A stretch of 40,901 bases of DNA, from positions 1 through 40,901 of IMG/VR virus record IMGVR_UViG_2563366888_000019; one strand, written 5' to 3'. The notes under the pieces were generated by a model. It did no database searches, was not told the origin of the DNA, and saw only the letters and a program-made list of their open reading frames with translations. The translations under genes were made by a program, and so were the position numbers. The stretch is from a virus. Lineage: Duplodnaviria; Heunggongvirae; Uroviricota; Caudoviricetes. Position 1 is the first letter of the stretch, and each line of letters opens with the position of its first letter. Below are positions 1 through 40,901 of this stretch, one piece after another.

Positions 1-516
1 ATGAAATTTAAAAAATGTCTTCTGCCTGTGGCAATGTTAGCGTCATTCACTCTGGCAGGATGCCAGTCAAATGCTGACGATCATGCTGCCGATGTTTATC
101 AAACCGATCAACTGAATACCAAACAAGAAACTAAAACCGTTAATATTATTTCCATTCTTCCCGCAAAAGTTGCCGTAGACAACTCCCAAAATAAACGGAA
201 CGCACAAGCCTTCGGCGCGCTTATTGGCGCAGTCGCTGGCGGTGTTATCGGCCACAACGTCGGGTCTGGCAGCAATTCCGGAACGACGGCAGGTGCAGTT
301 GGCGGCGGAGCTGTAGGCGCGGCAGCGGGTTCTATGGTGAATGATAAAACCTTAGTGGAAGGTGTTTCTTTAACCTATAAGGAAGGCACCAAAGTGTATA
401 CCTCTACCCAGGTGGGTAAAGAGTGCCAGTTTACGACAGGTTTAGCCGTTGTTATTACCACGACGTATAACGAAACGCGTATTCAGCCAAATACCAAATG
501 TCCTGAAAAGAGCTAA
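1..516 (+). CDS. glycine-zipper lipoprotein (171 aa)
   Basis: ATG at position 1; signal peptide ending in lipobox LAGC; Gly/Ala-rich AVAGGVIGHNVGSG zipper segment; lies outside the phage late block. Confidence 0.6.
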   Translation: MKFKKCLLPVAMLASFTLAGCQSNADDHAADVYQTDQLNTKQETKTVNIISILPAKVAVDNSQNKRNAQAFGALIGAVAGGVIGHNVGSGSNSGTTAGAVGGGAVGAAAGSMVNDKTLVEGVSLTYKEGTKVYTSTQVGKECQFTTGLAVVITTTYNETRIQPNTKCPEKS

Positions 517-531
517 TAATCAGGAGGAGTC

Positions 532-1071
532 ATGAAGAAAGTTTTTCTTTGCGCCATCTTAGCCTCCTTAAGCTATCCGGCTATCGCCTCATCATTGCAG
601 GATCAACTCTCTGCTGTCGCAGAAGCGGAACAGCAAGGTAAAAATGAAGAGCAAAGGCAGCATGACGAATGGGTCGCGGAGCGCAACAGGGAAATCCAGC
701 AAGAGAAGCAACGTCGCGCAAATGCCCAGGCCGCCGCTAACAAAAGAGCGGCAACGGCAGCGGCAAATAAGAAAGCTCGTCAGGATAAACTGGACGCCGA
801 AGCCTCTGCGGACAAAAAACGCGATCAAAGTTATGAAGATGAGCTACGCAGCTTAGAGATTCAGAAACAAAAACTGGCGCTGGCGAAAGAAGAAGCCCGC
901 GTTAAGCGAGAAAACGAATTTATCGATCAGGAACTGAAGCACAAAGCTGCGCAAACCGATGTGGTGCAATCTGAAGCTGACGCCAACAGAAATATGACTG
1001 AAGGCGGTCGCGATCTGATGAAAAGCGTGGGCAAAGCAGAAGAGAACAAATCGGACAGCTGGTTTAATTAA
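532..1071 (+). CDS. secreted Ala/Lys/Glu/Gln-rich coiled-coil protein (179 aa), function unknown
   Basis: AGGAGG 6 nt upstream of ATG; N-terminal signal peptide; highly charged helical body. Confidence 0.55.
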   Translation: MKKVFLCAILASLSYPAIASSLQDQLSAVAEAEQQGKNEEQRQHDEWVAERNREIQQEKQRRANAQAAANKRAATAAANKKARQDKLDAEASADKKRDQSYEDELRSLEIQKQKLALAKEEARVKRENEFIDQELKHKAAQTDVVQSEADANRNMTEGGRDLMKSVGKAEENKSDSWFN

Positions 1072-7692: not shown

Positions 7693-8388
7693 ATGACAGC
7701 TACAAAAAGCACGTCCATTTTTTCTTTCGAATCCCAAGCCGATATACGAGTAATCGTCATAAATGGTGAGCCATGGTTTATCGCTTCAGATGTTTGTCGG
7801 GCTATAGGCATAGCAAACCATCGAGATGCTGTTCGAAAACTTGATGATGATGAGAAGGGCGTCGCTTCAACCGACACCCCTGGCGGTGAGCAAGAATCGA
7901 TCATCATCTCCGAGTCAGGCCTCTACACACTGATCCTCCGCTGCCGCGACGCAGTGACACCAGGCACTATCCCCTACCGCTTTCGTAAATGGGTTACAGG
8001 TGAGGTTCTTCCTCAGATCCGCCGCACCGGAAGTTACATTAAAAACTCGCTCCCGCAGGAAGAACGCATAAAGATGGTTGCCGACCAGGTAGCCAACGCC
8101 ACAGCATCAGCAGTGATGCAGGCAATGAAGATAGAGAACAAAACCTACAGCGCCCCACTGAAGCCCGGCTACCGCAGTTTGATTCACTCGCCGTCTGGTG
8201 TTCTCGGCCTGACGGAGAACTCACTGCTGATGAATCTGCTGAACCAGTTACAGGAAGACGGGCACGACGTATCGGGCGCGGCGGCGGAGCTGACCACCAT
8301 GTTCTGCTACATCGTCGGTGTGAGTAAATGCCTGCGTGATATCCAGACCCACGCGGAATACATCAACGACAAAGCAGGGTTCTTCTGA
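7693..8388 (+). CDS. Bro-N domain antirepressor-type protein (231 aa)
   Basis: N-terminal region matches BRO-N pattern; C-terminal domain paralogous to 5967..6224; AAAAGG SD. Confidence 0.7.
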   Translation: MTATKSTSIFSFESQADIRVIVINGEPWFIASDVCRAIGIANHRDAVRKLDDDEKGVASTDTPGGEQESIIISESGLYTLILRCRDAVTPGTIPYRFRKWVTGEVLPQIRRTGSYIKNSLPQEERIKMVADQVANATASAVMQAMKIENKTYSAPLKPGYRSLIHSPSGVLGLTENSLLMNLLNQLQEDGHDVSGAAAELTTMFCYIVGVSKCLRDIQTHAEYINDKAGFF

Positions 8389-8500: not shown

Positions 8501-8689
8501 ATGGAAATCAACATCATTACATTGCTGAAGGCCATTATTGGCGGAGCGGGCTTAGGCTTTGCCCTACCAGGCGGATTATCTTTCCTGCTTCCTGCTTTTA
8601 CTGTTACAGCTGGGATAGCCTATGCATTTGCTGTGGCTGGTGCTGTTGCACTCCCTGCTATCTATGCCGCAAAGAAGTTAGCCAACTAA
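8501..8689 (+). CDS. small Gly/Ala-rich hydrophobic peptide (62 aa), possible membrane-active peptide or toxin
   Basis: GGGGG SD; N-terminal 15 aa end in GG (double-glycine-leader-like), rest is GxxxG-rich hydrophobic with KKLAN tail. Confidence 0.45.
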   Translation: MEINIITLLKAIIGGAGLGFALPGGLSFLLPAFTVTAGIAYAFAVAGAVALPAIYAAKKLAN

Positions 8690-8690
8690 A

Positions 8691-9023
8691 ATGCCTGATT
8701 TATCTTGGCTTGCGCCCAGAGATGCACAGCAATTGACAAGGTTTTATTTCATACTGTGCATTGCTTATCTTGCTGTTCATCTGATATGGGATGCCGTTTG
8801 CAAAGATACGCCTCCTTTTTCTTTGGATAAGTTGCAATACAAGATGAATGAGGTTTATTCATCATCTACTTTTGCAACCAGCGCATTCTTCATTGTTATT
8901 CTGTTCGATATGAAGAATCCACTGAGAACTTCAGATGCTTTCATATTCCCATTAATTATTGCTGCTCTAACTGGCTTTATGATCTCATTATCAGCAATAG
9001 TGCCAAAGAAAGTAAATAACTGA
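8691..9023 (+). CDS. 3-TM membrane protein (110 aa), possible immunity or partner protein
   Basis: start 2 nt after stop of 8501..8689; three hydrophobic helices; terminator follows. Confidence 0.5.
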   Translation: MPDLSWLAPRDAQQLTRFYFILCIAYLAVHLIWDAVCKDTPPFSLDKLQYKMNEVYSSSTFATSAFFIVILFDMKNPLRTSDAFIFPLIIAALTGFMISLSAIVPKKVNN

Positions 9024-9026
9024 ATA

Positions 9027-9049
9027 AGCCCGCGTTGCGGGCTTTTTTA
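9027..9049 (+). terminator. rho-independent terminator
   Basis: AAGCCCGC-GTTG-GCGGGCTT stem-loop plus T6. Confidence 0.7.
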
Positions 9050-9120
9050 TGGACGAAACAAAAGTCAGTGCTACACTCATTGACGCCACATTGAGGTGGT
9101 TTATAGATGGAAATTTCACA

Positions 9121-9282
9121 ATGAAAAAAGCATTTGCTGCACTGTTCGTTTTGTTGTCTCTGGTAGCTTCAACTCAGGCCTTTGCCGGTCGTTGTCAGCA
9201 CGACAGCGACACTGCTGCTGACGGCTCCCGCTGCGGTGGGCGTTCTGCGGATTCCCGCCCAGGCGGCGGTGGCATTCGTTAA
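9121..9282 (+). CDS. small secreted Gly/Arg-rich peptide precursor (53 aa)
   Basis: Sec-type signal peptide ending AFA; mature ~31 aa with 2 Cys; TTGACG-N16-TATAGA promoter-like upstream; weak SD. Confidence 0.35.
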   Translation: MKKAFAALFVLLSLVASTQAFAGRCQHDSDTAADGSRCGGRSADSRPGGGGIR

Positions 9283-9288
9283 AAACAA

Positions 9289-9304
9289 GGCCGCGAAAGC
9301 GGCC
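9289..9304. terminator. hairpin GGCCGCGAAAGCGGCC (copy 2 of 2)
   Basis: identical to 6231..6246; between convergent 9121..9282 and 9319..9768. Confidence 0.55.
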
Positions 9305-9318
9305 TGTGACATGTCACG

Positions 9319-9768
9319 CTACTTGCGAAATCTTTCTTTACCCTTCCAGCCAGTAGATGTTAGTTCAGGATGAATGGTTCCCAATATAAAGCCAACCATA
9401 GCGGAGCGAGGATCTTCTATTTTATCCGTTAATTCTTCGGCATAACTCACAGGCAACCAAGCAACAAGATCACCAATCCTCAGCTTTGGTCCTTTGCTGT
9501 AAGATGAATCGGCAATAACAAAAAATCCACCATCAGCTGAGCACACCTTCAGCATTGCCCTTTGTCTTCCAGAATCTAGCAAAACTGGCTGTTCCCCACT
9601 TGGACCAGGTATGATGATGGCTGGCATTGGTTTATTGGCTGAAAGGCTTGTGTCAAGATACTTACACGCATACTCAAAAGCTGAAAAGTTATCCTTAAAG
9701 ATAAGAGGTTGAATTTTATTGCTAACCTCCTTACCACCGATTAATCTGTTGATCATCTTCTTGAACAT
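9319..9768 (-). CDS. hypothetical protein (149 aa)
   Basis: AGGTGA SD before ATG 9768; no recognisable motif; part of cargo island. Confidence 0.5.
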   Translation of the reverse strand: MFKKMINRLIGGKEVSNKIQPLIFKDNFSAFEYACKYLDTSLSANKPMPAIIIPGPSGEQPVLLDSGRQRAMLKVCSADGGFFVIADSSYSKGPKLRIGDLVAWLPVSYAEELTDKIEDPRSAMVGFILGTIHPELTSTGWKGKERFRK

Positions 9769-9780
9769 AAAGGTCACCTA

Positions 9781-10221
9781 ATGATTAAGCCGATGCACGC
9801 TATTACAGCTACCGTTTTGTTTATCCTACCAATTTTTTCGTTTGCAAACGACATATGTTTTAAGAATTTAATAAATGAGGATATGTGTGCACATGCAAAC
9901 AAAATTGCATCAGAAGCAGGAAAGTCACTTCCCATAAAATTGAATGATAATATGTCTATTGTTTCAATAAATGCAATACTAAACAAACTTTTAGTTGTAG
10001 CGCATCTTAATTACAACAACAGCTATTTATCAAAAGTTTATAACGGTGATGTAACCTTAGAAAATAAATTAAAGAGTGTAATGCGAAATTATTCAAAATC
10101 GAGCATTTGCTCCAACAGGCAAATGAAAGCATTTATTCACCTTGGCGGAGAGATTGAATATAGATATGTATTTAGTGATGGCAATATATTTGATACATAC
10201 GCCATCACTAATTGTGAATAG
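9781..10221 (+). CDS. secreted hypothetical protein (146 aa), very AT-rich
   Basis: N-terminal signal peptide; Asn/Ile/Lys-rich; composition unlike the flanking structural genes. Confidence 0.5.
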   Translation: MIKPMHAITATVLFILPIFSFANDICFKNLINEDMCAHANKIASEAGKSLPIKLNDNMSIVSINAILNKLLVVAHLNYNNSYLSKVYNGDVTLENKLKSVMRNYSKSSICSNRQMKAFIHLGGEIEYRYVFSDGNIFDTYAITNCE

Positions 10222-23347: not shown

Positions 23348-23644
23348 TCACTCCTGTTCACTGGCCTCTTTGGCCATCTTCAAATACTGTTCAGGGCAAT
23401 GCGCCATAACGCGCTGAAACAGTTCCAGCGCCAGATTGCGTTGCCCCTCATTAAATGCCATTGCCATAGCGTCCATCGGTGAGATAGCGGAAAACACACG
23501 GCCTTTCTCCAGCACCGACCAGACAACGCGACGCCCCTGTTCACTGCTCATGACAAAGCGAATGTCATCAATTTCACGCTGTGCCATGTCACGTTGCTTA
23601 CGGGCGTTTTCTTCTTTCAGTTGATCATCTTCGTAATCTGTCAT
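23348..23644 (-). CDS. hypothetical head-module protein (98 aa)
   Basis: ATG overlaps portal stop. Confidence 0.45.
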   Translation of the reverse strand: MTDYEDDQLKEENARKQRDMAQREIDDIRFVMSSEQGRRVVWSVLEKGRVFSAISPMDAMAMAFNEGQRNLALELFQRVMAHCPEQYLKMAKEASEQE

Positions 23645-25320
23645 TGTGATTGCCCACCCTGACCACTAACTGCATTCGCCATAGCTGACAAAACACTCGG
23701 ATCCGAAGTTTTAGCTTCGCTTAGCGTCTTGGCACCCTGTGCCGCCGCCATCCCCATCGCCATCATTTGTTGCTGCTGTTGTTGCTGTGCCCGTTGCTGG
23801 CGAGCCTGCTCAACCTGTTCCTGCGGAACAATGACGGTTGGAGACACTCCGGACATATCAGCGAATGCATCGATCGCCTGATCAACGTTGAGTTTGTCGA
23901 GAGCTTCTGGTTTCGCTTGCGCAAGTTGACCAATGAAGTTAACCGTGGACGCCAGACTGGACAGGCCGATAGACTTCTGCGCCTGAGCCATGACGGAAAT
24001 GTATTCGACCTTCAGGGGCATACCTTCCATCGCGTCAGGCGGTGGCGGCAGCATGTTTTTACGCACCATCATCGAGAAAGCGCGGTCAATGAGAGGGTTA
24101 AGACATTCGTCGTTCAGACGCTCCAGAACCGGCCCCAACATCAGAAGTTTTTCTTCTTTCATTTCGATCACCGCTTCAACAGGCATCGAGCGGGTATTGA
24201 TGTTCTGCAACATCATGAACAGATCGACAAAGTAGGCGCTGTTAATGATTTGACGAGTGTCCTGAATGTCTGCTACCAGATCTGCTGTACTGGGGTTAAC
24301 CAGATAAGCAGGCCTGAAACCATCCTGACCAGTAATCTGATCGATATACGTGATGTCGCCAGGAAGAAGGGAGGCGCGCTGATTCTTGAGGGAATTCGGA
24401 GCAACCATCGGCGGATTGGTGGCTTTATCAATCAACTGCGACTTGCGCTTCTGGAGAAGCTGCAATGCCTTAACAGGTCCAAGCGCCAGCATACCCGGGC
24501 ATGATGATCCATAAACATCTTCGCCATTAACTTCCCAGCGCGGAGCCATAATTGGAAACTCATCAAATCCGGACTCACGCAACAACTTGTCGTTATCGCC
24601 ACCAACCTCGTAATAAACCGATTTGAATGGCTTGTTCTTGCTATCCAGCTTCGATGTATCGCGGTCAATGTTCGGGTAAACCGAATGCATCACGTCAATC
24701 CACTTCTCGTAGGTGCCGCTTTCCCACATGCTTTTTACGGATTCGCTGACGTTATTTAGCCCGAACTCCTGAACAAGCTGACGAACAGTCATAGAGAACT
24801 TGCGAAAACAGGTGTCCACACTGCCACGAGGTGAGTTAGCCAGGTAGTAACTGCCTATCGGGAATGGCATTGTGCGAATGATGTCCTCGTCATCCTCCAG
24901 CACCGCCATTGCACCAGTGCTGTATGTGCCGAGGCTTCCGTATAACTGCGGAAGAGACTGGTAGAGATTCGACTTATTGAACATATCGTTCATGCGGTTC
25001 TGCACCGCCTCAAGCCACAACTTAACAGGGCCATAATCCATCATTTCAGGATCTGGCGTAGCCAGGCGAAACCACGGACGCGCTGGGCTTGTGATGCCTG
25101 ACATCATGCCGCTGGCGAGAGTGCGCGCCGCCATAGTCCCGGTCGAATCAATAATGCGTGTATTGCGTCGATCGTTACGGTTGACCTCAGAAGTCAGAAA
25201 GCGGGAACCACGCGGGTTGATGTAATCACTCAACTCGCGCCAGTGCGGCTCGAACGACTGACGCTCGCTTTCAAGTTGTGCGAACTGTTTGTTCAATCGC
25301 TCTTTAGTTGTTTCCGCCAT
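23641..25320 (-). CDS. portal protein (559 aa)
   Basis: size and position as first large head gene after terminase; GGAG SD; acidic Gln-rich C-terminus. Confidence 0.75.
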   Translation of the reverse strand: MAETTKERLNKQFAQLESERQSFEPHWRELSDYINPRGSRFLTSEVNRNDRRNTRIIDSTGTMAARTLASGMMSGITSPARPWFRLATPDPEMMDYGPVKLWLEAVQNRMNDMFNKSNLYQSLPQLYGSLGTYSTGAMAVLEDDEDIIRTMPFPIGSYYLANSPRGSVDTCFRKFSMTVRQLVQEFGLNNVSESVKSMWESGTYEKWIDVMHSVYPNIDRDTSKLDSKNKPFKSVYYEVGGDNDKLLRESGFDEFPIMAPRWEVNGEDVYGSSCPGMLALGPVKALQLLQKRKSQLIDKATNPPMVAPNSLKNQRASLLPGDITYIDQITGQDGFRPAYLVNPSTADLVADIQDTRQIINSAYFVDLFMMLQNINTRSMPVEAVIEMKEEKLLMLGPVLERLNDECLNPLIDRAFSMMVRKNMLPPPPDAMEGMPLKVEYISVMAQAQKSIGLSSLASTVNFIGQLAQAKPEALDKLNVDQAIDAFADMSGVSPTVIVPQEQVEQARQQRAQQQQQQQMMAMGMAAAQGAKTLSEAKTSDPSVLSAMANAVSGQGGQSQ

Positions 25321-25968: not shown

Positions 25969-26045
25969 GTGGCATTAGCTCAGTTGGACAGAGCAACCGC
26001 CTTCTAAGCGGTTGGTCGCAGGTTCGAATCCTGCATGCCACGCCA
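25969..26045 (+). tRNA. tRNA-Arg (anticodon UCU)
   Basis: 77 nt; acceptor stem GTGGCAT/ATGCCAC, T-loop GGTTCGAATCC, anticodon loop CTTCTAA, discriminator G and encoded CCA; close to host argU-type tRNA as recalled. Confidence 0.85.
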
Positions 26046-39644: not shown

Positions 39645-40901
39645 TTATTTATTACTGTCTTCCATCCACCTCTCAAACTTCGACGGGGAGAACGGAATCA
39701 GATCCGTATGCTCCCCATTAATCCAGGAATCAATCATATCGGCCCACTGCTGCAACATGTAGGCGCGCTGTCTGGCGTATTCCGCTTTGTTATATACGGC
39801 GCGCACACCTTTCTGCTCATGTGCCAGAGCCTTTTCAATCCAGTCTGAAGGATAACCAGCCTCATGCAACAACGTACTTGCTGTACGGCGCATATCGTGT
39901 ACGGTGAAGCCCTGAATATGCTCACCATCTTCATTTATTATTTTCACCGTTCTGTCGATCAGAGAGTTCAGCGCGGCATTAGATAATGGCTTCCGGAAAT
40001 TGTAACGACCAGGAACCAGATATTCACTTCCACCAGCGCACATCTGCAACCCGACCAATATATCCTGAGCCTGTTTAGGCAGGTAAATAACGTGCGCCCG
40101 GCTTCCCTTCATGCGGTCTGAAGGAATTGTCCATGTCCATTTTTTAAAATCTATTTCATCCCACGTTGCGTTGGTGAATTCGCCTTTACGAACCATAGTG
40201 ATAAGCACCAGCTTTAAAGCCATTTTCATAGTGCCCATAGCACCAATGGCATCCAGCGTGCGGAAGAACAGGCCAATTTCTTCTGGTGTCAGTGTTCGCT
40301 CTCGTGGTTTAAATATGGCGATAGACGAAGGTTTAATGTCAGCCGCAGGATTAAACAAACCATGACCACGGTCATTGGCGTGACGGTATACGCTGCTGAT
40401 GATCTCCCTGGCCTGTACTGCTGTTGCCCGACCACCGCGTTCGACAATCCGGTCACACAAATCACGAACCATCGATGTGGTAATTTCAGCCATCATTTTG
40501 TTGCCAAGAACCGGAAGTATGTCACGGTCGATCACCGCCTGCTTCATTGCGCGGGTACTGTCAGCCAGGATGACGTGTTTCATATAACTGTCGGTATGTA
40601 CCGCAAACGTCTCAGCACCACGAATCTTTTTGATACCGTCACGTTTAGCCGCAGCCGGTGACTGGCCTGCTTTAAGCAGCTTCTTTGCAGCAATCAGTTC
40701 TTCCCGCGCTTCTGCCAGGCTGATACCGTCACGCCCATACTGCCCGATTACCAGTGTTTCGCGGCGACCGTTGATACGGTAGTCATAGCGAAACGAGACC
40801 GTGCCTGACGTAAGTACAGCTACATACAGCCCGTCACGATCGGAGACCTTGTACAGTTTGTCCTGCGGCTTGAGGTTTTTTAATTTTGTATCGGTAAGCA
40901 C
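39645..40901 (-). CDS. int: tyrosine integrase, 5' end at or beyond window edge (at least 418 aa)
   Basis: C-terminal H-x-x-R (HDMRRTAST) and catalytic Tyr region (VRAVYNKAEY); first codon in window is GTG at the edge; convergent with phosphatase gene. Confidence 0.85.
   Translation of the reverse strand: MLTDTKLKNLKPQDKLYKVSDRDGLYVAVLTSGTVSFRYDYRINGRRETLVIGQYGRDGISLAEAREELIAAKKLLKAGQSPAAAKRDGIKKIRGAETFAVHTDSYMKHVILADSTRAMKQAVIDRDILPVLGNKMMAEITTSMVRDLCDRIVERGGRATAVQAREIISSVYRHANDRGHGLFNPAADIKPSSIAIFKPRERTLTPEEIGLFFRTLDAIGAMGTMKMALKLVLITMVRKGEFTNATWDEIDFKKWTWTIPSDRMKGSRAHVIYLPKQAQDILVGLQMCAGGSEYLVPGRYNFRKPLSNAALNSLIDRTVKIINEDGEHIQGFTVHDMRRTASTLLHEAGYPSDWIEKALAHEQKGVRAVYNKAEYARQRAYMLQQWADMIDSWINGEHTDLIPFSPSKFERWMEDSNK

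Follow-up and report, generated by a model that had tools for sequence, protein, structure and literature searches.

A Prophage-Borne Gene for a Small, Predicted Exported Peptide and the Wide Distribution of Its Two-Cysteine Motif

The DNA analyzed here (the window) is the whole of the 40,901-nucleotide IMG/VR virus record IMGVR_UViG_2563366888_000019 which, judged from its sequence, is an integrated Escherichia coli prophage of the phiV10/epsilon15-like type (Uetakevirus). At positions 9121..9282 it contains a 53-codon gene for a Gly/Arg-rich peptide with two cysteines and a Sec-type export signal. This gene is protein-coding and under strong purifying selection, far beyond what chance would produce. 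The core motif of its mature part is, as far as the database searches indicate, a mini-domain with no entry in Pfam, NCBIfam, or PDB. The reading favored overall, which is on balance probable, is that of a prophage moron exporting a peptide of ~3 kDa, which acts by itself on a conserved envelope component.

The initial annotation of this region had proposed a small secreted prophage peptide with its own promoter. The outline of this proposal is right, namely an exported small peptide of a prophage which probably forms a transcription unit of its own. Three details are wrong: where the gene starts, which hexamers make up the promoter, and the supposed rarity of annotation. As first posed, the finding is ordinary and already catalogued, and the breadth and near-invariance of the 27-residue motif are the only part which merits follow-up.

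Coding Evidence and Extent of the Gene

The gene and the two parts of its predicted product are the following:
9121..9282, + strand: peptide gene of 53 codons, with ATG at 9121 and stop TAA at 9280..9282
9121..9186, + strand: predicted signal peptide MKKAFAALFVLLSLVASTQAFA, with n-region MKK, a 13-residue h-region, and c-region STQAFA
9187..9279, + strand: predicted mature peptide GRCQHDSDTAADGSRCGGRSADSRPGGGGIR, 31 aa, with two Cys (Cys3 and Cys16) and the core motif

The maximal open reading frame (ORF) around the gene runs from 9049 to 9282 on the + strand (77 aa) and had at first been taken as the gene. In relatives from other genera, in-frame stops are located just before MKK, and every deposited annotation of the peptide is the 53-aa form. 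Therefore, ATG 9121 is considered as the true start, and the 24-codon extension back to ATG 9049, which is not conserved, does not belong to the gene.

The codon alignment comprised 14 orthologues, that is, those of the window, Enterobacter (two), Franconibacter, Rahnella, Kluyvera, Klebsiella, Rouxiella, Pectobacterium (two), Pantoea (two), Tolumonas, and Buttiauxella. Synonymous sites are saturated among them. The proportion of synonymous differences (pS) and the ratio of nonsynonymous to synonymous change (dN/dS) for the two parts of the gene are given below:
Signal region: pS 0.70; dN/dS 0.15; variable third positions 23/24, first positions 19/24, second positions 14/24
Core (first Cys to RPGG): pS 0.71; dN/dS 0.05; variable third positions 25/25, first positions 10/25, second positions 8/25

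This substitution pattern is the signature of a constrained protein and thus rules out an incidental ORF or an element acting purely at the RNA level. The frame, whose loss in homologous regions had been named beforehand as one ground for giving up the gene, is conserved in many genera. Both dN/dS and the sequence features establish a genuine, prophage-borne small gene for a two-cysteine peptide with a Sec-type export signal. The GC content of the coding sequence is 57.4%, versus 37.5% in the upstream gene and 41.8% and 31.5% in the downstream genes, a high value which is partly forced by the Gly/Arg/Ala content of the product.

Predicted Export and the Mature Peptide

All the sequence hallmarks of a cleavable Sec signal peptide are present in the precursor, with a predicted cut at AFA↓G. 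In detail, the features expected for Sec and signal peptidase I are an n-region with positive charge, a hydrophobic h-region of 7–15 residues, and residues at −3 and −1 that are small and neutral, and all of them are found (MKK; the 13-residue AFAALFVLLSLVA, with a mean Kyte–Doolittle hydropathy of 2.74; and A-F-A↓G). Among 80 homologues, all have A, S, or V at position −3, 79 have Ala at −1, and 75 have Gly at +1. None of the 80 has a lipobox ([LVI][ASTVI][GAS]C), and the Cys sits at +3 after G-N/R. In the AlphaFold2 model of the precursor, residues 2–16 form a helix.

The remaining part of the signal drifts freely (at the dN/dS of 0.15 given above) while A-x-A↓G stays conserved, and this argues for cleavage by signal peptidase I. 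Similarly, an h-region of only 13 residues argues against a stable membrane anchor. From these features we infer cleavage after Ala22, a Cys25–Cys38 disulfide (precursor numbering), and residence in the periplasm. The textbook Sec signal originally described ahead of a 31-residue, two-Cys mature peptide is thus confirmed in the sequence. As for the term "secreted," the export signal is there, and the most likely destination is the periplasm rather than the culture supernatant.

The mature peptide has a mass of 3.06 kDa, an isoelectric point (pI) of 8.1, and a grand average of hydropathy (GRAVY) of −1.19, and contains 8 Gly and 5 Arg. Its core motif in the window is C-x4-D-x-A-x-DGSRCG-x-R-S-A-x-x-RPGG. 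Both the precursor and the mature peptide were modeled by AlphaFold2 as an irregular loop with no regular fold (predicted local distance difference test, pLDDT, ~77). Foldseek against PDB returned nothing for the precursor model and only matches of E ≥ 6 for the mature-peptide model, and the sequence-profile search of PDB with the family gave 0 matches at E up to 10. The Pfam scan of the peptide showed no family at E up to 1, Excalibur included. Matches to the NCBIfam entries HxsA3 (E 0.02–0.07, 13–15 bits against a cut-off of 65) and MarB were rejected as subthreshold noise from the signal peptide.

A Motif Found across Double-Membraned Phyla

The first pass of the family search recovered 57 protein clusters, the precursor profile 704 clusters at 90% identity, and the profile of the mature part 180 representatives from a library clustered at 50% identity. 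The consensus of the family is G-N-C-x4-[DQ]-x-A-[AS]-D-G-S-R-C-G-x-R-[SA]-A-x-x-R-P-G-G (~27 residues). Wherever the motif pattern was located in family proteins (260/260), 12 residues separate the two cysteines, and throughout Enterobacterales the mature core is nearly invariant.

Pattern and profile searches revealed the motif also outside Enterobacterales, in Tolumonas, Vibrio, and Rhodoferax, in many Rhizobiales (Mesorhizobium, Devosia, Methylobacterium, Rhizobium, Agrobacterium, Bradyrhizobium, and Microvirga), in cyanobacteria (Dolichospermum, Anabaena, and Nostoc), in Bacteriovorax, and in one Polyangiaceae genome. The phyla involved are Proteobacteria, Cyanobacteria, Bdellovibrionota, and Myxococcota. 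All family loci with a taxon-named record come from double-membraned phyla, and the few others are metagenome bins. From enterobacterial prophages to rhizobia and cyanobacteria, the motif is thus kept nearly residue for residue, with no counterpart in Pfam, NCBIfam, or PDB.

Most members of the family consist of a signal peptide and the motif alone, ending 0–3 residues past GG. The motif is also found at the extreme C-terminus of proteins of 100–370 aa, often behind a Gly/Ser linker or a hydrophobic segment, or directly behind the signal peptide and before a Pro-rich linker and another domain. Some members carry it in two copies. There is also a four-Cys variant, GNCPCPY..NGSRCGGRSAYSRPGGxSPxC, sometimes accompanied by SH3_3 domains. 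Among 36 diverse members scanned with Pfam (E up to 0.01) and NCBIfam, no family covered the motif, and the matches outside it, in a few long members, were to SH3_3, SH3_4, and a pilus N-terminal domain.

Within the four-Cys subfamily, the proteins P0089, P0108, P0126, P0138, P0160, and P0181, all encoded outside the window, have an amphipathic segment before the motif, and two of them, P0126 and P0181, also bear bacterial SH3 domains. In another subfamily, a lipoprotein signal comes first, then a coiled region and a hydrophobic segment rich in Gly and Ala, and the motif stands behind these.

In the respective search for neighboring genes, the all-against-all BLAST of the neighbors at 57 loci showed no recurrent partner gene. 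Pfam and PHROG scans of 200 neighboring ORFs likewise gave no conserved partner, the most frequent Pfam families occurring in 2 of 125 neighbors. In Enterobacterales the gene is surrounded by various phage genes (endolysin, spanin, Ant, and virion proteins), and in alpha-proteobacteria and cyanobacteria by unrelated genes of the chromosome.

Occurrence and Existing Annotation

The unit which carries the gene is present in 537 of 5426 complete E. coli genomes, in at most three copies per genome, as well as in 307 IMG/VR contigs (the 80 copies inspected are all identical and from E. coli, hence uninformative on covariation) and in 12 records of cultured phages of E. coli and Klebsiella. The exact protein occurs on at least 1000 public contigs. 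Carriers also include prophages of Klebsiella, Salmonella, Citrobacter, Cronobacter, and plant pathogens.

The gene is already catalogued under a vague name. The identical 53-aa E. coli sequence is RefSeq WP_000708858.1, a "hypothetical protein"; gp43 of phage TL-2011b (YP_007001994.1) is named "putative transmembrane anchored protein"; and UniProt A0A0A1A7U0 belongs to the same family. The peptide matches PHROG 14503 ("membrane associated protein") with E 2.3e-40, residues 1–53 aligning to profile positions 1–53 of 53, and the 77-aa form of the long ORF matches phrog_3117 at profile positions 25–77. The view that annotation of such peptides is rare does not apply here, since the peptide is already a coding sequence in RefSeq and in phage records, is contained in PHROG 14503, and lies on the many public contigs mentioned above. 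Literature searches on the peptide, its database name, the core motif, and TL-2011b returned nothing about the gene, its function, or its structure.

About one in ten complete E. coli genomes, therefore, has a gene with a placeholder name only. Should lysogens produce the peptide, it would be a very common envelope factor supplied by prophages. Its size of 3 kDa permits synthesis, and it thus lends itself well to the search for a new envelope-binding module.

A Self-Contained Accessory Unit

The first 25 kb of the window are mostly 96–98% identical to EC.W1-9, HEMP4, TL-2011b, phiv142-3, and phiV10. The peptide gene sits at the junction between an accessory cluster read rightward and the terminal part of the structural operon, which is read leftward. 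The genes which define this setting are the following:
7693-8388, + strand: Bro-N/Ant-like gene of the accessory cluster, upstream of the peptide gene
8501-8689, + strand: small, strongly hydrophobic protein of 62 aa (phrog_13406)
8691-9023, + strand: small, strongly hydrophobic protein of 110 aa (phrog_36716)
23641-25320: portal
39645-40901: integrase

The homology of the peptide unit to TL-2011b, phiv142-3, and EC.W1-9 is restricted to ~9024-9325, and the flanks are unrelated. Its limits fall exactly at the upstream terminator on the left and just past the downstream hairpin on the right, so that the unit of ~300 bp consists of a terminator, a promoter region, the gene, and a hairpin. The flanking genes vary from phage to phage and include a YafO-family toxin, DUF2335, DUF4760, Ant, and several hypothetical proteins.

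phiV10 lacks the peptide gene, save for its last ~25 nt (GGCGGCATTCGTTAA), which are found before the shared hairpin and close the very small gene annotated as gp22:
phiV10 about 2475-2500: remnant aligned to window 9258-9282 (sequence alignment)

This 3′ remnant suggests that the gene was ancestral at the site and was then partly deleted. Discrete boundaries, flanking terminators, and a base composition unlike that of the neighbors are all seen at 9024-9325, and PHROG 14503 is filed under the category "moron." In terms of sequence organization, this segment is a self-contained, moron-like accessory unit.

Putative Promoter, Leader, and Terminators

The elements of the unit which surround the gene are listed below, as read from the sequence:
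9026..9050, + strand: predicted intrinsic terminator, with stem 9026-9044 (8 bp, 6 of them GC pairs) followed by the T-run TTTTTTAT
9049..9055, + strand: weak −35-like element ATGGACG (4/6 matches to TTGACA), overlapping the T-run of the terminator
9069..9077, + strand: extended −10-like element TGc-TACACT, with hexamer TACACT at 9072-9077; best promoter candidate
9080..9107, + strand: TTGACG-N16-TATAGA, with TTGACG at 9080-9085 and TATAGA at 9102-9107; unconserved
9085..9100, + strand: putative leader hairpin GCCAC-ATTGAG-GTGGT, with a 5-bp stem beginning 7 nt after the −10-like hexamer
9109..9111, + strand: Shine–Dalgarno-like GGA, 9 nt before the ATG, with GGA, GGT, AGG, or GAG at the same place in relatives
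9288..9305: GC hairpin AGGCCGC-GAAA-GCGGCCT with a GAAA loop, at the right edge of the unit

The peptide gene probably has its own promoter, since the upstream terminator forms the start of the unit, which is transferred as a whole among differing neighbor genes. This terminator belongs to the cluster of Bro-N and small membrane proteins and forms the left edge of the unit. The conserved candidate is the TG-extended TAnnnT, located 44 nt upstream of the ATG. Its positions T9072, A9073, and T9077 are invariant in 13/13 sequences of different genera (TACACT, TACAAT, TATGAT, TACGCT, and similar), and in most relatives a TTG-containing hexamer is found at the equivalent distance as a candidate −35.

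A promoter-like element had been noted before, and in this respect the expectation of an own promoter is probably right; the hexamers differ. The proposed TTGACG-N16-TATAGA, whose −10 lies 30 nt downstream of the conserved one, is indeed present, and its presence is no more than chance would give: over 3 kb, the promoter scan counted 6 such sites versus 6.3 expected from shuffled sequence. The scan missed this particular pair because the −10 has no T at position 6. It is also not conserved in other genera, in the alignment of which TTGACG stands opposite ATAAAG, TCAGAG, or TCAAAG, and TATAGA opposite TACACA. Furthermore, a start 7 nt past TATAGA would delete the Shine–Dalgarno GGA. A SigmaS-type −10, considered on account of a C at −13 in GCTACACT, was not retained; that C is found in only 5/13 genera, and the idea stays a lead with no claim attached.

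The leader hairpin (4–6 bp, 6–7 nt after the hexamer) is at the same place in 11/13 genera, with stems as different as CCAC/GTGG, CCGC/GCGG, CCGTC/GATGG, CTGC/GCAG, and TTGCC/GGCAA. In the alignment, 83% of the cells are paired and 4/5 pairs show compensatory changes. The covariation score is 0.505 versus 0.305 in shuffles (0/500 reach the observed value) and ≤0.21 in slid registers, in a test which covers only 13 related sequences; the evidence that the covariation is real is suggestive. Stem-loops at the 5′ terminus are known to stabilize E. coli mRNAs, and the hairpin would possibly stabilize or regulate the mRNA of the peptide. The Rfam scan showed no family over the ORF or the leader, and its subthreshold matches, Trp_leader and MicC, rest solely on the hairpin of the upstream terminator.

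At the right edge, the T-run of the GC hairpin is on the minus strand, and the record of phiV10 annotates the same hairpin as a terminator. By its sequence, the hairpin is the terminator of the convergent minus-strand late operon, and it may stop the peptide transcript too. In the orthologues from Enterobacter, Franconibacter, and Tolumonas, TTTTTT comes after the equivalent hairpin on the + strand. The original description of a promoter-like element between two terminators is accurate for the strong intrinsic terminator upstream; the hairpin downstream exists, with its T-run on the minus strand only.

Directly after this hairpin, positions 9306-9317 form a perfect 12-nt palindrome, GTGACATGTCAC. 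The palindrome is also found in phiV10, TL-2011b, and phiv142-3 and at loci of Kluyvera, Klebsiella, and Buttiauxella, and could be a candidate protein-binding site.

Proposed Role of the Peptide and Alternatives

The best guess from the sequence features is that the peptide is a periplasmic ligand-binding peptide. Transcription would start from the weak TG-extended −10 and produce a leader of ~37 nt which has the hairpin at its beginning and includes a ribosome-binding site. The Sec system would export the precursor, signal peptidase I would cut after AFA22, and the Dsb system would oxidize both cysteines, closing a 14-residue ring (the two Cys and the 12 residues between them). The product would be a hydrophilic periplasmic peptide of ~3 kDa, made in the lysogen, and it corresponds to about one copy of the ~27-residue mini-domain which many double-membraned bacteria encode.

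The weakest step of this proposal is the next one, namely that the peptide works alone and binds a conserved envelope component. Since the motif stands alone behind a signal peptide or as a tag at the N- or C-terminus of envelope proteins otherwise unrelated to each other, and never with a conserved partner gene, the peptide is most likely self-acting. The invariant Arg/Gly-rich loop (DGSRCG-x-R...RPGG) suggests that the ligand would be anionic, such as a phosphate or carboxylate group of the cell wall or of a lipid-linked molecule. The phage copy would then alter a property of the lysogen envelope, for instance resistance to superinfection or to envelope stress.

A broader form of the proposal is possible and is put forward tentatively, as clearly less probable than the moron reading itself. 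The motif would be a new diderm mini-domain for a universal envelope component, used either as a free peptide or as an anchoring tag, of which phages would have captured the free form. The temperate phages of Enterobacterales may then have taken this free form as a moron that remodels or protects the envelope of the lysogen.

Several points weigh against the exported, self-acting peptide. Cleavage and disulfide formation are predictions derived from sequence rules, and the proposed binding of a ligand is argued from domain architecture and conserved residues. Neither structure nor sequence searches found a relative of known function, and the literature searches found nothing on expression or phenotype of the gene or its relatives. 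The candidate promoter is weak (8/12 consensus matches) and absent from the calls of the promoter scan. In the window, the + strand of the downstream hairpin has no U-run and is followed by TGTGACATGT instead. Moreover, some long members of the family place the motif behind a second hydrophobic segment. Together with a cleaved N-terminal signal, this would put the motif in the cytoplasm if the segment spans the membrane, which does not fit a purely periplasmic role.

Each of the alternatives which follow is considered less likely than an exported peptide acting on the envelope. The first of them, an unlikely one, holds that the N-terminal hydrophobic stretch is not cleaved and that the product is a 53-residue signal-anchored protein of the inner membrane (N-in, C-out). 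This is how the databases describe it ("transmembrane anchored protein" in NCBI, UniProt, and phage records; "membrane associated protein" in PHROG 14503), and in many longer relatives the motif comes straight after a hydrophobic segment which is a possible anchor. However, the hydrophobic core of the peptide spans only 13 residues and is followed by the polar S-T-Q. The retention of small residues at −3 and −1 and of Gly at +1 in an otherwise variable signal is the pattern expected from selection by a signal peptidase, and the literature searches found no experimental backing for the database name.

It is quite improbable that the gene encodes the precursor of a ribosomally synthesized and post-translationally modified peptide (RiPP) or a metal-binding peptide in the manner of bufferins (Sec-exported, Cys-containing, and associated with MNIO enzymes), or that the loop binds Ca and is related to the Excalibur motif DxDxDGxxCE. 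The peptide is short and predicted to be exported, with invariant Cys, Asp and, in Enterobacterales, His. Its D-x-A-x-D-G-x-x-C agrees with DxDxDGxxC of the Excalibur motif at 4/5 defined positions, and the weak, subthreshold NCBIfam match mentioned above is to the His-Xaa-Ser repeat peptide HxsA3. With regard to RiPPs, no modifying enzyme, transporter, or other gene recurs beside the peptide at the 57 loci from many phyla, and the commonest Pfam families among the neighbors (2/125) are unrelated to RiPP maturation. With regard to Ca, Pfam gave no match at E up to 1, Excalibur included; an invariant Ala occupies the third position of the loop; and Gly stands in place of the final Glu. Many members have Gln instead of the first Asp, and conservation of the His is limited to Enterobacterales.

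An antibacterial toxin of the bacteriocin or microcin kind, or one member of a toxin–immunity or antiphage defense pair, is equally improbable. The region is a variable accessory one, in which relatives carry YafO-family toxins and other cargo, and toxins do exist among small secreted Cys-containing peptides. Against this, PADLOC-DB v2 gave 0 families for the peptide and 7 neighboring proteins, no conserved immunity or export gene is adjacent, and the leader is a Sec signal, not a double-glycine one. With a GRAVY of −1.19 and a pI of 8.1, the mature peptide is hydrophilic and close to neutral, and it is not amphipathic; a hydrophilic peptide of 3 kDa exported via Sec alone would be expected to stay in the periplasm of its producer.

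That the conservation reflects an RNA element (a small RNA or the terminators) with an incidental or untranslated ORF is suggested by the strong hairpins bracketing the unit and the covarying hairpin in the leader, and is very improbable because the substitutions in the ORF fall overwhelmingly at third positions (25/25 in the core), amino acids are kept at saturated synonymous divergence, and the motif is kept at the protein level across phyla with unrelated DNA and with no Rfam family on the ORF or leader.

Comparison with Known Systems

The E. coli member of PHROG 14503, the "transmembrane anchored protein" of the databases, belongs to the same family and is identical in sequence. PHROG 14503 is a database cluster, and its name derives from predicted topology.

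The moron concept reportedly goes back to Juhala et al. in 2000, and bor and lom of phage lambda encode envelope proteins of the lysogen. Similarly to these morons, the peptide gene is an autonomous unit between terminators, present or absent among close phages and deviant in GC content. By its position it ends a late operon or accessory cluster, and its product bears an apparent export signal to the envelope. No sequence relationship exists, however; Bor belongs to the lipoproteins and Lom is a barrel of the outer membrane, in contrast to the predicted soluble peptide of 31 residues encoded here.

Spackle (Sp) of phage T4 is a small phage protein with a Sec signal which acts in superinfection exclusion in the host periplasm. 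Both proteins are small, phage-encoded, and equipped with a Sec signal, whereas action in the periplasm is only proposed for the peptide. In contrast to Spackle, with which no homology was detected, the peptide is far smaller, a role in exclusion is purely hypothetical for it, and its motif occurs also in nonphage, chromosomal settings in alpha-proteobacteria and cyanobacteria.

Excalibur (Pfam PF05901) is likewise a short extracellular module with D-x-x-x-D-G-x-x-C and a second Cys upstream. Unlike Excalibur, the peptide has no Pfam match, its loop reads D-x-A-x-D-G-x-x-C-G, and the set of Ca ligands is incomplete.

Other Features of the Window

Between two minus-strand late genes, positions 9781-10221 contain, on the + strand, an ORF of 146 aa with a signal-like start, MIKPMHAITATVLFILPIFSFA, a GC content of 31.5%, and a match to phrog_8772. 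Due to its placement on the opposite strand between these late genes, it looks like a second moron for a secreted protein.

A tRNA-Arg gene (anticodon TCT) is located within the prophage at 25969-26045 on the + strand. Finally, positions 1-1071 (+ strand) encode a glycine-zipper/TraT-like protein and a DUF5384 protein; since related phages match the window from about 1162 on, these two genes are probably host flank or further cargo.

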